Shown here: piece by piece, positions 11,491 through 22,396 of the stretch
Layout of the letters: every line of letters begins with the position of its first letter
Numbering within the stretch: the stretch's first letter is position 1
Made by a program: the position numbers and the translations under genes
Assembly: GCA_031416315.1 (NCBI GenBank)
Contig: JANOTL010000225.1
Coordinates: 1-22,396, forward strand
Reading direction: 5' to 3'
DNA length: 22,396 bases
DNA from: Pseudomonadota bacterium
GTDB lineage: Bacteria; Bdellovibrionota_B; Oligoflexia; Oligoflexales; CAIYRB01
Notes under the pieces: model-generated
What the model was told of the DNA's origin: nothing
Database searches by the model: none
Seen by the model: the letters and a program-made list of their open reading frames with translations, nothing else

Positions 11491-13110
11491 ATGTCGAACC
11501 TGAAACTCTTCGGATCCCTGGCCCTCGCAGCGACCCTGACGTCCTGCGGCAGCGAGCCGAAAAAGCTCGCCGGCTATGACCAGTCGCAAGCCAGCGCGAG
11601 CGACACCAAGAAAAAATCGGATCGGGACAAGAACAAAGACGGCAACGACGCCGACGCCACCGAAGGCGGCAAGCGCGATCATACCGTGAAGCCGCCCCGC
11701 GAGTACTACGACGCCCTGTTCGCCTCGGCTTTGCGCACCGTCGACAACGCCGGCGACGGCTTCTCGCTGGCCGATGTCGCAGGCGGCGACCCCGTCCTCT
11801 TCGTGAACTTCGACGGCGCCTCGCTCCACAAAGGCTTCGAGATCGGTGAGAGCTTCCTCCTCTGCCAAAACTTCGCCGAGATCGCGCCGCCGGACCTGTC
11901 GGCCGCAGACAAGACGGAGATCCTCGCGCAGGTCGCGAAGTTCTTCGCGGACGCCGGCGCCCGCCTCGTCGTCACCGGCGAAGCCCCTACGCAAGGTAAC
12001 TTCACCACCGTGCACGTCGGCGGCTCCTACGCCGACCTCGGTTGCAACGGCAACAGCGTCCTCGGCATCGCGCCCTTCGACAAGGGCAACGCCAACGTGA
12101 ACGACGTCGCCTTCGCCTTCACCAAAGGCATCGACGCCGTCTCGGTGATCGCCGAGACCATCGCCCACGAAGCCGGCCACTCTTTCGGCCTCGAGCACTC
12201 CGACAACGCCGCTGACCTGATGTTCGGGTCGACTAGCCCGACGATCGAGGGATTTCTTAGTGGAAAAATCCCCGGCTCCGCGGCGACCCAGAACGGGCCC
12301 GCCGTCCTCCAGACGGCCCTCGGCGTCCTCGACGGCGCCGTCGCCGCCGCCAACGCCATCGCCGGCGGCGCGGGCGCTGCCGCCGCCATCCCGGGTCTCA
12401 CCTACCTGCCGCCGAACCTGGCGCAGCTCCCGGGCTTGGCCGAGATCGCGATGATCGGCCAGCTCCTCGCCACGCTGAACGGCGCGGATGTCGTCGACAT
12501 CGCGAAGCTCGTCCCCCAGATCGTCGCGCTCTTGCCCGGCGACGCCAAGAACATCAACCTCGCCGGCCTCGACAAGATCCTGACCATCGTCGGCCTCGCC
12601 ACGAGCGCCGTCAGCGCCCAGAACGGCAACGCCCTCCCGGCCACGGTCAACGGCATCTTCAACTCCGGCATCCTCACCAGCCTCCTCGCTCCTCAAGCCG
12701 CTCCGGGTGCCGCTGGCGGCGCCGCCGGCGTCATCCAAGGCGTCACCGGCCTGGCCACCCTCGCCGGCTTCGGCAACGTCGGCGGCGCGATCTCGGCCAT
12801 CCAGGGCATCCTCGGCGCCTTCTCGGGCCAGCAAGCCCCGGTCGCCACCCCGGCCAACCCGAACGCGGACCCCACGATCGCCGCGATCAACGCTGCGCTC
12901 CCGGACTTCGCCGCGATCCTCGGCCTCGTCATCAAGAACAAGCAGATCGGCGATCTCGTGACGAGCCTCCTCGGCACCACCGAAGTCATCATCCAGAACT
13001 TCCCGCCCGGAGCCGACCGCGACGCGATCCTCTCGCTCGTCAAGGTCGCCTACGCGCAGGTCTACAAAGAGCTTTCGGCGAAGCAACCCGCCGCCGTCAG
13101 CGCCCCGTAA
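11491..13110 (+). CDS. Zinc metalloprotease lipoprotein (metzincin/matrixin-like) with Ala/Gly/Leu-rich C-terminal half
   Basis: GGAGG RBS; lipobox ATLTS-C; HEAGHSFGLEH (HExxHxxGxxH, 12166-12198) followed by Met-turn candidate DLM; strong C-ending codon bias. Confidence 0.88.
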   Translation: MSNLKLFGSLALAATLTSCGSEPKKLAGYDQSQASASDTKKKSDRDKNKDGNDADATEGGKRDHTVKPPREYYDALFASALRTVDNAGDGFSLADVAGGDPVLFVNFDGASLHKGFEIGESFLLCQNFAEIAPPDLSAADKTEILAQVAKFFADAGARLVVTGEAPTQGNFTTVHVGGSYADLGCNGNSVLGIAPFDKGNANVNDVAFAFTKGIDAVSVIAETIAHEAGHSFGLEHSDNAADLMFGSTSPTIEGFLSGKIPGSAATQNGPAVLQTALGVLDGAVAAANAIAGGAGAAAAIPGLTYLPPNLAQLPGLAEIAMIGQLLATLNGADVVDIAKLVPQIVALLPGDAKNINLAGLDKILTIVGLATSAVSAQNGNALPATVNGIFNSGILTSLLAPQAAPGAAGGAAGVIQGVTGLATLAGFGNVGGAISAIQGILGAFSGQQAPVATPANPNADPTIAAINAALPDFAAILGLVIKNKQIGDLVTSLLGTTEVIIQNFPPGADRDAILSLVKVAYAQVYKELSAKQPAAVSAP

Positions 13111-17139: not shown

Positions 17140-17216
17140 TATTGCTCTACACCGCGCGAGACCCCTGAGCTAGCTTAGGGCGCTTCCGTTTCCGCCATCC
17201 GTTTGAGGACTTGCCC

Positions 17217-18149
17217 ATGTCGCAGCCCGTACAAGACGTCGTCATCATCGGCACTGGCCCCGCCGGCCTCACCGCCGCCATCTACGCGGCCCGCGGCGGC
17301 TTCAAGCCGATCGTCTACGCCGGCATGCAGCACGGCGGTCAGCTTACGACGACGACGGAGATCGACAACTGGCCGGGCTTCCGCGAGGGCATCATGGGAC
17401 CGGCGCTCATGGCCGACATGACCGCGCAGGCCGAGCGTTTCGGCTCTGAGATCATCTACGACGAGATCACCAAGGTCGACTTCTCCGGCAAGGTCCACAA
17501 GCTCTGGGCCGGCGACAAAGAGATCCAAGCGAAGGTCGTGATCATTGCGACCGGCGCCACGGCGAAGACGCTCGGCCTGCCGCGCGAAGCCGAGCTCATG
17601 GGCCGCGGCCTCTCGACGTGCGCTACTTGCGACGGCTTCTTCTACAAAGGCAAGAAGGTCGCCATCGTCGGCGGCGGCGACACCGCGATGGAGGAGGCGA
17701 GCTACCTCGCGAAGCTCGCAAAGGAAGTCGTCCTGATCCATCGTCGCGACGTCTTCAAAGCTTCCGACATCATGTTGAAACGCGTGAAATCGCTTCCGAA
17801 CGTCACAATGCACATCCCCTATGACGTCGTCGACACGCTCTCTGACGCGACGGGCCTGACCGGCATCGTTTTGAAGCACACGCAAACCGGCGCCAAGAGC
17901 GAGATGAAGCTCGACGGCTTCTTCATGGCCATCGGCCACCGCCCCAACTCCGGCGTCTTCAAATCGTTCGTCGACACCGACGATCACGGCTACATGACGG
18001 TCAAGGATTTCACTAAAACCAAGGTCCCGGGCATTTACGCTGCCGGCGACATCGCAGATCCGGTCTTTCGTCAGGCCGTCACCGCGTCCGGCATGGGTTG
18101 CCAAGCCGCAATGCAAGCCATTCGCTACCTCGAGGAGCAACACGGGTGA
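17217..18149 (+). CDS. trxB: Thioredoxin-disulfide reductase
   Basis: IIGTGPAGLTAAIY, GGQL, active site CATC-DG, VGGGDTAMEEA, HRRD, AAGDIAD, RQAVTASG. Start ATG 17217 with GAGGA upstream. Confidence 0.96.
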   Translation: MSQPVQDVVIIGTGPAGLTAAIYAARGGFKPIVYAGMQHGGQLTTTTEIDNWPGFREGIMGPALMADMTAQAERFGSEIIYDEITKVDFSGKVHKLWAGDKEIQAKVVIIATGATAKTLGLPREAELMGRGLSTCATCDGFFYKGKKVAIVGGGDTAMEEASYLAKLAKEVVLIHRRDVFKASDIMLKRVKSLPNVTMHIPYDVVDTLSDATGLTGIVLKHTQTGAKSEMKLDGFFMAIGHRPNSGVFKSFVDTDDHGYMTVKDFTKTKVPGIYAAGDIADPVFRQAVTASGMGCQAAMQAIRYLEEQHG

Positions 18150-19312
18150 TGGGTCTCCTCTCCGGCTTGAAAGAAAAGCTCAGCGGCAATCAGCCGCCCA
18201 AAGGTCCGACCGAGGCCGACGTACGCCAAGCGCTCACCGTCGTCCGTGATCCCGATCTGCACCAGGACATCGTCGCCCTCGGCTTCGTGCGAAACGTCGT
18301 CATCGAGCGCGGCATCGTGTCGCTCGAGGTCAACCTCACGACCCCGGCCTGCCCCGTCAAAGAAGAGCTAAAAACGCAGTGTGAGACCGTGCTGCGCGCC
18401 CTCCCCGGCATCACCGACGTCAAGGTCACCATGACCGCGACAACGCGCGCACCAGCCGCCTCGCAGGCTCTGAGCTCGAACCCGGCTCTGGCCGGCGTGA
18501 AGAACATCATCGCCGTCGCCAGCGGCAAGGGCGGCGTCGGCAAGTCCACCACCGCAGTGAACCTCGCCTACGCCCTCGCCCGCGCGGGCTCGAAAGTCGG
18601 CCTCCTCGATGCCGACGTCTACGGCCCCTCGATCCCGAAAATGGTGCGTCTCACGCGCCTCGCCGAAGGCGGCGTCGACAACCGCATCCTCCCGCCTGAG
18701 GCCGACGGCGTGAAGGTGATCTCCGCCGCGATGTTTGCCTCCACCGGCGGCAACACCGGCGGCGCCGCGATCTTGCGCGGCCCGATGGCCGGCAACGTCG
18801 TGAAGCAGTTCTTGACCATGGTCGAGTGGGGGGAGCTCGACTACCTCGTCATCGACTACCCTCCTGGCACGGGCGACATCCAGCTCACCATCTCGCAGAC
18901 CGCGCCCGTCACCGGCGCCGTCATCGTCACCACCCCGCAGGAAGTCGCCCTTCTCGACGTCCGCAAAGCGGTGCAGATGTTCAAGACGCTCAAAGTCCCG
19001 GTTCTCGGCGTCGTCGAGACGATGAGCTACTTCGTGTGTGACGGCTGCGACAAGAAGCACTACCTCTTCCGCGAAAAAGGCGGCGAGAAGCTTGCCCGCG
19101 AGCTCGGCGTCGCCTTTCTCGGCGCCGTCCCGATCGATCCTGCCGTCACCATCGGCGGCGACGAGGGCACGCCGCATGTCGTCTCCCATCCGGACTCGAT
19201 CGCGGCAAAAGCGTACGTGCAGGCCGCCGGCGCCGCCGCGGCCCAACTCTCGATCCTGAACGCGCAGCAAAGCGGCGCCCTCCGCGAGTTCACCCTCGTT
19301 TGGAAGAACTGA
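18149..19312 (+). CDS. mrp: Mrp/ApbC/NBP35-family Fe-S cluster carrier ATPase with N-terminal DUF59 domain
   Basis: ATG 18149 overlaps trxB stop (TGATG) with GAGGAG upstream. DUF59: VRDPDLHQDIVALG, LTTPACP. ATPase: SGKGGVGKST, DADVYGPS, DYPPGTGD, VTTPQ, CDGC. Confidence 0.94.
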   Translation: MGLLSGLKEKLSGNQPPKGPTEADVRQALTVVRDPDLHQDIVALGFVRNVVIERGIVSLEVNLTTPACPVKEELKTQCETVLRALPGITDVKVTMTATTRAPAASQALSSNPALAGVKNIIAVASGKGGVGKSTTAVNLAYALARAGSKVGLLDADVYGPSIPKMVRLTRLAEGGVDNRILPPEADGVKVISAAMFASTGGNTGGAAILRGPMAGNVVKQFLTMVEWGELDYLVIDYPPGTGDIQLTISQTAPVTGAVIVTTPQEVALLDVRKAVQMFKTLKVPVLGVVETMSYFVCDGCDKKHYLFREKGGEKLARELGVAFLGAVPIDPAVTIGGDEGTPHVVSHPDSIAAKAYVQAAGAAAAQLSILNAQQSGALREFTLVWKN

Positions 19313-19319
19313 AGAACTG

Positions 19320-19622
19320 ATGCAACCCGAATCCCACCGCGTCAAAGACATCGCGCAAATCGACCCGCGCACCATCGGCATCCTGTGGACCGATGGCAAG
19401 AGCGACGCCTTCGACGTCGTCGAGCTCCGCCGCAAATGCCCTTGCGCCGTCTGCATCGACGAATGGACCCGCGTCCCGAAGCTGAAGCCGGAGGACGTCG
19501 CCGAAACCGTGCGTCCCGTGAAGATCGAATCCGTCGGCGCCTACGCGCTGCGCATCGATTTCAGCGACGGCCATCGCACCGGAATCTACACGTTCAATCT
19601 CCTCCGTCAAATGCATGCCTAG
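19320..19622 (+). CDS. DUF971 / gamma-butyrobetaine-hydroxylase-like N-terminal domain protein
   Basis: W-x-DG, LRRKCPCAVC, VGAYALRIDFSDGHRTGIYTF. Confidence 0.9.
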   Translation: MQPESHRVKDIAQIDPRTIGILWTDGKSDAFDVVELRRKCPCAVCIDEWTRVPKLKPEDVAETVRPVKIESVGAYALRIDFSDGHRTGIYTFNLLRQMHA

Positions 19623-20574
19623 AGCGTTGCTCCTAGCGCTTGCTGTCCTGATCCTCTGCGCCTGCACGACCACCGGTCCCGTGCGCCTCGACCCGGCCGG
19701 CGCCCGCGCCGCTTACAATCGCGGCATCGTCCACCGCAACGGCGGCGACCTCCCGGCCGCCCTCGACGACTTCACCCAGGCGATCGAGCTCGACCCGACC
19801 GATACCGACGCACGCGTAAGCCGCGGTCGCGTCTATCTCCGCCTCAAGAGGAACTACGACGCGATCGACGACTTCAACGCGGCGATCGCCCTGGAGCAAG
19901 GCAGCAAGGCCGACACCTTCACCAGCCGCGGCAACGCCTACCTGCGTCTAGGCAAGCTCGCCGAGGCGCGCGCCGACTACTCGAAAGCGATCGAGCTCAA
20001 GCCGAGCTCCGCCGACGACCATTACAACCGCGGCCTGACTTATTCCCGCGAACGGAGCTGGAAACAGGCCGAGGCCAACTTTTCCCGCGCGCTCGAGCTG
20101 AATCCGAAGGATGTCGGGGCGCTTCGCGAGCGCGCCGCCGCGCGCCGAGAATTGGGCGACGAGAAGGGGCGGCTCGCCGACTTGGACCGCGCGAAGGGAC
20201 TGGAATATGCCGCCCTTCTGAACGCCCCCCGGTCGAAGGGCGCCGTCGACCTCGACGACAAGAGCTACGGCGGCTACTTCATCAAGATGCGCGAACGCAT
20301 CGACAACGTGTGGGTCTATCCGCCAGACGCCGCGCAAAATGGCAAAAGCGGCACCGTCGCCCTCGAATTCAAGATCGCCCGTCAGGGCCACGTCCTCGAC
20401 GTCAAAATCGTGAAGACTTCGGGTTACGGGATCCTCGACGAGGCCATCGTTCGCGCCGTCCGCGGAGCCTCGCCTTTCGCGCCGCTGCCGACCGAATTCA
20501 CTAAAGACGTGCTAACCGTCACCGGCACCTTTAAATACGTCCTCACCGCGCCACGTAAAGATCCGGCAACGTAA
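19615..20574 (+). CDS. Lipoprotein with about 5 TPR repeats and a C-terminal TonB_C/TolA-C-like domain
   Basis: Lipobox LILCA-C; TPRs such as AYNRGIVH...DFTQAIELDP and HYNRGLTY...NFSRALELNP; WVYPPDAAQNGKSGTVALEFKI...G...SGYGILDEAI...ASPFAPLP. 8-nt overlap with the DUF971 gene. Confidence 0.88.
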   Translation: MPRALLLALAVLILCACTTTGPVRLDPAGARAAYNRGIVHRNGGDLPAALDDFTQAIELDPTDTDARVSRGRVYLRLKRNYDAIDDFNAAIALEQGSKADTFTSRGNAYLRLGKLAEARADYSKAIELKPSSADDHYNRGLTYSRERSWKQAEANFSRALELNPKDVGALRERAAARRELGDEKGRLADLDRAKGLEYAALLNAPRSKGAVDLDDKSYGGYFIKMRERIDNVWVYPPDAAQNGKSGTVALEFKIARQGHVLDVKIVKTSGYGILDEAIVRAVRGASPFAPLPTEFTKDVLTVTGTFKYVLTAPRKDPAT

Positions 20575-20645
20575 GCGAATCGCGTTGACCGTCTCATGCG
20601 CGGCAGCTTACAAATCCCTCATCAGATCGACCTTCTGTCTGGATA

Positions 20646-20711
20646 TCCCCATATAAGCCGGTGATTGGACCGGCGTTTCTACCCGAGGCCGCAAATCTCG
20701 GACTATGGAGA
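20646..20711 (+). promoter_or_regulatory. Purine riboswitch aptamer, guanine-type (U47/U51/C74), probably translational OFF switch
   Basis: P1 TCCCCATA (20646-53)/TATGGAGA (20704-11, one C-A mismatch); J1/2 TAA; P2 GCCGGT/ACCGGC with loop GATTGG; J2/3 GTTTCTAC; P3 CCGAGG/TCTCGG with loop CCGCAAA; J3/1 AC (C74-equivalent at 20703). L2 GG can pair with L3 CC. Element order and core match the B. subtilis xpt guanine aptamer. Confidence 0.9.
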
Positions 20712-20716
20712 GCCCC

Positions 20717-21628
20717 GTGAAGATGTGCCGTATTACGTCCGTTTTGGCTTTTTGCGTCGCCGTCAGTTCCCCCGCTTTCGCTTGGGGCGATCGTGGTCAC
20801 AAAGCTCTCAACGTCGTCTCCCCCGACCTGATGACTTCGGCCGGAAGCGACTTCTTCGATCGTCACAAGGACGCAATCGAGCGTCTCTCGCTGACGCCCG
20901 ACACGACCTTCAAGCGCGCCAACTTCGAGTCCGAGCGCGGCACGCACTTCTTCCATTGGGACAAATACCGCGACACGCCGACCTCCGCGTCTTTCGAGTC
21001 GATGTCTCTGCGCACCGTCCTGCAACGTCTCGGGGACGCGTACGTGGACGAGAACGGCTCGGCCCTCTGGCGCATCACCGACGTCTTCCGCAAGACGGTC
21101 ACCGCACTCCGCGAGCGCGACTGGACGCGTGCCGTGCAGATGGTCGGCATCATGGGACATTACGTCGGCGACCTCTCGCAGCCGATGCACGTCTCCAGCG
21201 ACTACGACGGCCAGTCGATCCAGCGTGAAGGCATTCACCGCCACTTCGAGATCACGCTTCTCGAGGATTCGAGCGCGGACGAGCTCCAAACTCAGGTCCG
21301 CAATGCCGCTGGCCCTGTCCGCCAGGAGCTCCTCCGCGAGCCGAAGACGGACGACCCGATCAAGGACATCCGCCGTCTCATCATCGCCGCCGGCCAGAAG
21401 TCGCTCGCGGAGCTACCCGGAATCCTTGCCCTCTACGACCGCCGCCGTCAGGACGACGAAGGCCTGAAACGCATGCTTGCCCCCCGTCTCGGCGAAGGCG
21501 CAGCCCTCTTTGCCCACATCATCGATCGCGCAGTTGAAGAATCGGCTATCAGTGCCGACTTCCCGACGCGTACATTGCAGGTCCAAGAGCCTGCCTTCTT
21601 CGGGCTCGATACTCAATCGATGGAGTGA
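20717..21628 (+). CDS. Secreted trinuclear-zinc S1/P1 nuclease / phospholipase C superfamily enzyme
   Basis: Signal peptide ending AFA then mature WGDRGH; TPD; HFFHWD; GHYVGDLSQPMH; GIHRHFE. Start placed at GTG 20717 (GGAG at 20707-20710); ATG 20705 and ATG 20723 are alternatives. Confidence 0.88.
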   Translation: MKMCRITSVLAFCVAVSSPAFAWGDRGHKALNVVSPDLMTSAGSDFFDRHKDAIERLSLTPDTTFKRANFESERGTHFFHWDKYRDTPTSASFESMSLRTVLQRLGDAYVDENGSALWRITDVFRKTVTALRERDWTRAVQMVGIMGHYVGDLSQPMHVSSDYDGQSIQREGIHRHFEITLLEDSSADELQTQVRNAAGPVRQELLREPKTDDPIKDIRRLIIAAGQKSLAELPGILALYDRRRQDDEGLKRMLAPRLGEGAALFAHIIDRAVEESAISADFPTRTLQVQEPAFFGLDTQSME

Positions 21629-21633
21629 GCCCC

Positions 21634-22287
21634 ATGATCACCGTTTACGCCGGACGCCCGCCCTTCAAGGCACTCAAGGGTCACGTCCGCGACATCCGTG
21701 TCACTTGGCTCCTCGAGGAACTCGGCGTTCCCTACACGACGAAGCTCCTCGACATGGGCGAACACCAGCACAAGACGCCCGAGTACAAGGCCATCAACCC
21801 GTTCGGCAAGATCCCCGCGATCACCGACGGCGACTTGAAGCTTTTCGAGTCCTCGGCCATCAACATCTATCTCGCCGACAAGTACGGCAAAGGCCGCATG
21901 ATCCCGGCCCACGGGACGCTGGATCGCGCGCGTCACGACCAGTGGATGTTCTACGCCGTCTCGACGCTCGAGCCGATTGCCATCCGCCTCGTCGGCGCCC
22001 GGGCCTTCTCCGAGCATCCCGAGAAGGCGGTCTCCGCGACGGTCGCCGAGCTCAAGGGCGCGGGCATCGGTCCGAACCATCTCGAGGTTCTCGAAGCCCG
22101 CTTCGCCAATCAAGAATTCATCTTGGGCAAGGAGATGACGGTCGCTGACATCTCGCTCAGCTGCACTTTGAGCTTTTGTAACCATCCTGAGCTGATCGGC
22201 GAGTACGCGTACCTGGCGCAGTACCTCGAGCGGCTGCAGGCGCGCCCAGCCTACGAGAAAGCGTACGAGATCAACGCCGGCTTCTGA
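21634..22287 (+). CDS. Glutathione S-transferase family protein
   Basis: RVTWLLEELGVPY, INPFGKIPAI, LFESSAINIYL, MTVADI, RLQARPAY. Start ATG 21634 with GGAG 8 nt upstream. Confidence 0.92.
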   Translation: MITVYAGRPPFKALKGHVRDIRVTWLLEELGVPYTTKLLDMGEHQHKTPEYKAINPFGKIPAITDGDLKLFESSAINIYLADKYGKGRMIPAHGTLDRARHDQWMFYAVSTLEPIAIRLVGARAFSEHPEKAVSATVAELKGAGIGPNHLEVLEARFANQEFILGKEMTVADISLSCTLSFCNHPELIGEYAYLAQYLERLQARPAYEKAYEINAGF

Positions 22288-22295
22288 GCCGTCCC

Positions 22296-22396
22296 TTAGA
22301 GGGTGTCTAAAAAGGCGCGGGACGTAGGTTTACGGTCCCGCGATCCGCAACCGCTGACCGCTTGCGGCATTCCGCGGTCCGTGCTCCGCCGACCGC
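22296..22396. other. Structured non-coding end: possible IS5-like/MITE terminus and/or - strand terminator
   Basis: TTA-GAGGGTGTCTAAAAAG followed by hairpins CGCGGGAC/GTCCCGCG (22316-22342) and CCGCAA/TTGCGG (22345-22367); truncated by the window edge. Confidence 0.3.

Follow-up and report, generated by a model that had tools for sequence, protein, structure and literature searches.

A guanine-I riboswitch predicted to occlude the ribosome-binding site of an exported nuclease-like gene in an Oligoflexales bacterium

Introduction

Guanine-I riboswitches (RF00167; Bacillus subtilis xpt-pbuX type) commonly control purine synthesis, salvage and uptake (PMC9295807). Genes for endonuclease I and ComEC are found behind 2'-deoxyguanosine-II (2'-dG-II) riboswitches (PMC8872408), and "direct translation attenuation" has been described for SAM-I, TPP and preQ1 riboswitches by Barrick and Breaker (PMC2258182). 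Bdellovibrio bacteriovorus secretes the nucleases Bd0934, Bd3507 and Bd1244 into its prey (PMC7925074, PMC3593177); predation by Oligoflexia is predicted and unconfirmed (PMC10385382). Here we describe a guanine-I type aptamer in contig JANOTL010000225.1 (assembly GCA_031416315.1) of an Oligoflexales bacterium, the analysed stretch of 22,396 nt being referred to as the window. It stands before a gene for an exported nuclease-like enzyme, as opposed to the purine genes usual for its class. We put the probability that it acts as a compact OFF switch for the translation of an exported enzyme that degrades nucleic acids at about 0.7.

Results

A complete guanine-I aptamer

The preliminary description, made from the letters of the window alone, had proposed a complete purine aptamer with U47, U51 and C74. 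Our reading of the sequence agrees, and the Rfam Purine model RF00167 matched positions 20629–20725 (+) over its whole length (model positions 1–102) with 55.5 bits, above the gathering threshold of 37 (E 3.1e-07), so that the covariance-model check proposed at the time came out positive. This was the sole Rfam match in the window. U22, U47, U51 and C74 are given in the xpt numbering, which agrees with the cited papers. The elements below the first line were read from the sequence.

20646–20711 (+), guanine-I type purine riboswitch aptamer, a three-way junction (Rfam 55.5 bits, three-way-junction fold, covariation in 64 distinct relatives)
20646–20653 / 20704–20711 (+), P1
20654–20656 (+), J1/2, with U22 at 20654
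20657–20662 / 20669–20674 (+), P2
20675–20682 (+), J2/3, with U47 at 20676 and U51 at 20680
20683–20688 / 20696–20701 (+), P3
20702–20703 (+), J3/1, with C74 at 20703
20667–20668 with 20689–20690 (+), kissing loops, GG of L2 with CC of L3

The computed fold is a three-way junction with junction lengths of 3, 8 and 2 nt. P1 consists of five pairs, a C·A mismatch whose A belongs to the sequence GGAG, and two further pairs, and P2 has 6 pairs compared with 7 in the Rfam consensus. When 68 aptamers of the window's phylum were aligned, 63 proved to share the shorter P2, which is also seen in Lactobacillus entries of the Purine alignment published in 2007 (PMC2258182 supplement).

In all 68 aptamers, U22, U47, U51, C74 and the loop–loop GG/CC are invariant. 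Among the 64 distinct rows, 91% of helix cells are paired (P1 80%, P2 94%, P3 99.5%), and two-sided changes number 206. Not one shuffle in 500 scored as high, a test inflated by the relatedness of the sequences, and slid controls gave 28–48% paired cells. The invariant nucleotides, the 3/8/2 junctions, the compensatory changes in P1, P2 and P3 and the L2–L3 GG/CC together assign the aptamer to the guanine-I class, as far as sequence can tell.

Related classes were considered and rejected. 2'-dG-II riboswitches are defined by C51, a two-base insertion in J3/1 and a junction-proximal G-C pair (PMC6847200), and are ruled out by U51, a J3/1 without insertion and an A-U proximal pair in 64/64 distinct rows. 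Xanthine-II and guanine-II riboswitches carry insertions in J2/3 and J3/1, xanthine-II having U51G as well (PMC9295807); the normal junction lengths here rule out both. The 2'-dG-III class, which departs from the standard in all three junctions (PMC9295807), is not applicable to this core. In the 8-oxoguanine class U47 is deleted and an 8-oxoguanine deaminase gene lies downstream (PMC10556655), and adenine riboswitches have U at position 74 (PMC5393184); these are ruled out by U47 at 20676 and C at 20703.

The Shine–Dalgarno sequence lies in P1

The 3' strand of P1 contains a Shine–Dalgarno (SD) sequence, GGAG, located 6 nt ahead of the start codon GTG 20717, exactly as had been suggested.

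20704–20712 (+), expression platform, 3' strand of P1 with the SD sequence GGAG at 20707–20710 (from sequence)
20585–20614 (+), candidate sigma70-like promoter, TTGACC, 18 nt, TACAAA (looser custom scan, 9/12 consensus matches)

The computed cost of opening the SD-bearing P1 strand is ~5.4 kcal/mol, compared with ~−6.4 kcal/mol for pairing with the anti-SD octamer; since the two are close, ligand binding could tip the balance. The arrangement recurs in the relatives. An SD-like core overlaps paired P1 by at least 2 nt in 60 of 68 parsed loci, the start codon lies 10–19 nt from the first base of the P1 3' strand in 68/68, and in the 64 distinct rows the distal P1 pairs covary while the 3' strand stays purine-rich. 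At L147–L150 and L038, an ungapped count gives only 2–3 contiguous P1 pairs, which could mean a bulge in P1 or a weak switch.

A terminator scan of 20400–22396 found none in the leader, in keeping with the absence noted earlier, and a single site inside the downstream glutathione S-transferase gene. The candidate promoter would put the transcript start ~25 nt before P1. Similar promoter-like sites were found by the looser rule in 31 of 67 leaders, compared with 8.1 ± 2.8 in base shuffles; a stricter scan did not call the candidate.

The gene encodes a predicted exported phosphoesterase

20717–21628 (+), predicted exported phosphoesterase with a trinuclear zinc site, phospholipase C/P1-nuclease superfamily, 303 aa, start GTG
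20717–20782 (+), predicted cleaved signal peptide, residues 1–22, ending in A-F-A, with Trp23 as the mature N-terminus (translation and homologue conservation)

Trp occupies the mature N-terminal position in 106 of 111 homologues. In 104 homologues this Trp is preceded by at least 10 residues, and 96 of these have small residues at both −1 and −3. The helical fold, the N-terminal Trp and the three-zinc ligand set place the protein in the superfamily; its key residues are W23, H28, D62, H77, H148, D152, H158, H174 and E178, together with K66, F78 and Q166. D62 and K66 align to the catalytic Asp65 and to Lys68 of S1 nuclease, the Lys68 position is K in 105 and R in 6 of the 111 homologues, and the S1 Phe81 position is aromatic in 111/111 (roles of the Lys68 and Phe81 positions from PMC5201275). 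The protein is probably a nuclease or nucleotidase. It had been labelled an S1/P1-type nuclease: the superfamily is borne out but membership of the family is not established, because the Pfam scores are below the cut-offs (S1/P1 nuclease PF02265, 24.9 bits against 29.5; zinc-dependent phospholipase C PF00882, 21.3 against 26.8). Two homologues, L011 and L012, exceed the PF02265 cut-off with 34.2 and 34.5 bits.

The aptamer precedes unrelated nuclease-like families

We then surveyed the regions upstream of homologues of the window gene, whose closest named records are labelled mostly Oligoflexales or Pseudobacteriovorax. From 80 returned loci, 40 were scanned. All 17 full-length close homologues (30–45% identity) have the aptamer immediately upstream, whereas none was found in 23 others, the next 3 plus 20 chosen distant homologues. 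The 17 likely overlap in part with genomes of our other searches and do not count as extra evidence.

The aptamer was also found before other genes. Behind 69 aptamers of the window's phylum, the first genes are HNH-like (36), S1/P1-like (18), PD-(D/E)XK-like (6), DUF3465-like (6), endonuclease I (2) and EEP (1). Behind 53 aptamers of the phylum reached through locus L072, they are HNH-like (31), endonuclease I (12), EEP (5), PD-(D/E)XK-like (3), EndoU (1) and EamA (1). The endonuclease I, EEP and EndoU genes score above Pfam cut-offs. None of the 122 first genes was recognised as a purine synthesis or salvage gene. A secreted nuclease had been called an atypical target, which is correct for guanine riboswitches in general but not within this lineage, where it is the rule.

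The lone exception among the 122 is at L196:444–1439, where an EamA/DMT transporter gene, possibly for a purine or nucleoside transporter, follows the aptamer at a distance of 53 nt. Structural variants also occur: the L210 and L211 aptamers have long L3 insertions and that of L153 a long L2 insertion and a score below the Rfam cut-off, yet the gene behind each of the three is again one for EndoU or endonuclease I. In a seven-locus clade (L049–L055), the next gene behind the S1/P1-like gene, ~100–150 nt away, is a tRNA gene on the opposite strand.

Host genome and neighbouring genes

The host genome (6.36 Mb, 65% G+C) has a second purine aptamer, also with its SD in P1, before the gene for a 180-aa HNH-like lipoprotein (L002:644–1278, G000:C33). 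purF and purM are present, and no aptamer was found at either.

G000:C75:63425–63766; C89:9696–10286; C199:31532–32572; C65:932–1693, aptamer-free exported-nuclease-like paralogues (HNH-like, S1/P1-like, two EEP)
21634–22287 (+), glutathione S-transferase gene, 5 nt downstream of the nuclease-like gene (Pfam GST_N, GST_C)

These four paralogues are natural controls within one genome. The glutathione S-transferase gene is probably co-transcribed with the nuclease-like gene here; tblastn did not find it at any of 34 further S1/P1-like loci, so it is not a conserved member of the module. Directly upstream, 19615–20574 encodes a TPR-repeat lipoprotein-like protein fused to a TonB C-terminal domain, which is not kept beside the nuclease-like gene elsewhere. 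Positions 17211–19622 hold an ordinary Fe-S/redox cluster of thioredoxin reductase-like, Mrp/NBP35 Fe-S carrier ATPase and GBBH-like N-terminal (DUF971-type) genes, and 11491–13110 encodes a 539-aa lipoprotein-like open reading frame that has a HEAGH motif resembling those of zinc metalloproteases, and a long tail rich in Ala, Gly and Leu.

Discussion

Proposed mechanism

A promoter near 20585–20614 would yield a short leader in which P2 and P3 form and their loops dock, as the covariation indicates, and P1 is marginal according to computation. From ligand binding onward, we infer the steps from the guanine-I mechanism and the position of the SD sequence. Guanine or hypoxanthine would pair with C74 and U51, closing the junction and locking P1, and because the P1 3' strand is the ribosome-binding site, the bound state would block initiation at GTG 20717. 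When purine is low, the enzyme would be made, exported and clipped to Trp23, and would degrade external RNA, DNA or nucleotides; uptake and salvage would then raise guanine and shut translation off again.

That the same cassette stands before genes of six or more mutually unrelated families of nuclease type, and before that of an OB-fold protein, argues for product feedback on extracellular nucleic-acid digestion, not for control of purine synthesis, and suggests that cells stop making nucleic-acid-digesting enzymes once purine suffices. Purine-repressed scavenging, as originally suggested, gains from the 17/17 homologues and from the other exported nuclease-like genes behind the aptamer. The proposal that the enzyme is made on purine starvation to digest external or prey RNA or DNA is supported as regards scavenging; purF and purM point to economy or feedback and not to rescue of a purine auxotroph, and "prey" is an extrapolation. 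Since purF, purM and the nuclease-like paralogues have no aptamer, the switch would tune only a subset of scavenging enzymes.

Several observations weigh against a translational OFF switch on a nuclease. On the RNA side, comparison of the relatives' leaders revealed no conserved helix competing with P1, and P1 of the window forms ligand-free in the computed ensemble (mean pair probability 0.67), so a narrow dynamic range is possible; at 5 of 68 loci P1, with no more than 2–3 contiguous pairs, falls short of the SD core. On the protein side, the PF02265 score is below threshold, and of the S1 nucleoside site 1 residues Phe81, Asp83 and Asn154, Asn154 is replaced by Gln in 107/111 homologues and no Asp aligns to Asp83, the column being Q/E/H with an Asp two residues on (both by sequence alignment only). 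The H174-x3-E178 motif is phospholipase C-like, and phospholipases C and S1/P1 nucleases came out level in a fold search, a phospholipase C coming first by Foldseek E-value. The two largest uncharacterised families behind the aptamer, 67 HNH-like and 9 PD-(D/E)XK-like genes, did not reach any Pfam cut-off where members were scanned, and no solved structure is a convincing relative of either. Two close HNH-like homologues and the four same-genome paralogues lack the aptamer, and the counts of aptamer–gene pairs are not independent events because the genomes are kin.

Alternative explanations

The protein-side objections bear on the possibility that the riboswitch works as proposed but its product is a phospholipase C or a phosphoesterase of some other kind, serving phosphate or lipid scavenging. 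Neither sequence nor fold decides between nuclease and phospholipase C. We nevertheless consider a lipid- or phosphate-directed role improbable: a 111-sequence profile ranked S1 nuclease ~100-fold above phospholipase C, the highest query TM-scores were to P1 and S1 (0.58 and 0.57, against 0.49–0.53), the W-G-x-x-G-H start, Lys66 and aromatic residue 78 are as in S1/P1 nucleases, and among the other genes behind the aptamer, some pass Pfam cut-offs for endonuclease I, EEP and EndoU. About equally improbable is a switch with a nucleoside as its ligand (2'-deoxyguanosine or guanosine), which nuclease plus nucleotidase action would yield directly, like 2'-dG-II. The endonuclease I and ComEC genes behind 2'-dG-II riboswitches are the same kind of target (PMC8872408), and the 6-pair P2 and the frequent U at position 73 (34/68) could be read in this direction, but U51, the two-base J3/1 and the A-U pair are invariant, contrary to the 2'-dG-II definition (PMC6847200), and the Lactobacillus rows show the same P2.

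It is slightly less probable again that the aptamer binds guanine without gating ribosome loading, with control through mRNA decay or Rho, or with negligible control. The missing anti-P1 helix would fit, as would the spread of computed ligand-free P1 occupancy across relatives (0 to 0.96), and Barrick and Breaker note that sequences resembling ribosome-binding sites in some aptamers may escape ligand control (PMC2258182). However, the 10–19 nt start-codon distance is kept before six unrelated gene families, the covarying distal P1 pairs retain their purine-rich 3' strand, and the leader has neither room nor sequence for a terminator.

Implications

A broader proposal, which we hold tentatively and rate a little short of even, is that in Bdellovibrio-like and Oligoflexus-like bacteria the guanine riboswitch left purine synthesis and became a portable product-feedback cassette, repeatedly recruited to unrelated exported nucleases and pacing the digestion of prey or environmental nucleic acids to the guanine pool. 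Deletion of bd0934/bd3507 raised extracellular DNase activity with no clear transcriptional cause, and the authors suggest increased translation as possible (PMC7925074); a portable cassette, if real, would explain this rise. Three uncharacterised exported families (the HNH-like lipoprotein, the PD-(D/E)XK-like protein and the OB-fold DUF3465) and the S1/phospholipase C-intermediate family would then be new proteins of extracellular nucleic-acid use, and the riboswitch could point to the function of several families that at present carry the annotation "hypothetical". It would be the first metabolite-level control on digestive nucleases of predatory and putatively predatory bacteria; a riboswitch class that has been studied in depth would acquire a new task and a design in little use, direct hiding of the SD in P1. 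The idea is directly testable in B. bacteriovorus, which is open to genetic manipulation and in which copies of the aptamer are catalogued.

The aptamer is thus of a known class in a lineage-wide role that is apparently undescribed. We found no paper on a guanine-riboswitch nuclease regulon in the full-text literature, outside which subscription papers mostly lie, so a prior mention is possible. The available text of the papers on Bdellovibrio secreted nucleases (PMC7925074, PMC3593177) does not mention riboswitches, that of the Bdellovibrio transcriptome paper (PMC3627812) does not mention purines, and the available text and supplements of PMC3766115 gave no match on the topic.

Comparison with known systems

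The aptamer shares with the xpt-pbuX type the three-way junction, the 3/8/2 junctions, U22/U47/U51/C74 and the kissing loops, and differs in having no terminator platform, an SD inside P1 and a 6-pair P2. Two purine aptamers of B. bacteriovorus HD100 (PMC2258182 supplement) are alike in the 6-pair P2 and in GGAG and a start codon at the P1 3' end; they are listed as alignment rows, with neither downstream gene nor test in the available text, and neither "Bdellovibrio" nor "nuclease" occurs in the main text of that paper. 2'-dG-II riboswitches (Weinberg 2017; structure PMC6847200), reported from Bacteroidetes, likewise place a purine-family scaffold before DNA-acting genes, but their C51, J3/1 insertion and G-C proximal pair are all absent here. 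The actinobacterial-type SAM-I design, with the ribosome-binding site in the 3' side of P1, is similar in that a ligand-stabilised P1 hides the site (PMC2258182), but has another aptamer and ligand, and the paper names TPP, preQ1 and SAM-I as common users, not purine. The encoded protein is 11–17% identical both to S1/P1 nucleases (S1, P1, SmNuc1, AtBFN2) and to a zinc phospholipase C (B. cereus PC-PLC), and is a mosaic of S1-like features (WGxxGH, Lys66, aromatic 78) and a phospholipase C-like H-x3-E. The secreted nucleases Bd0934, Bd3507 and Bd1244 of B. bacteriovorus belong to the Endonuclease_1 family, which follows 14 of the 122 aptamers.
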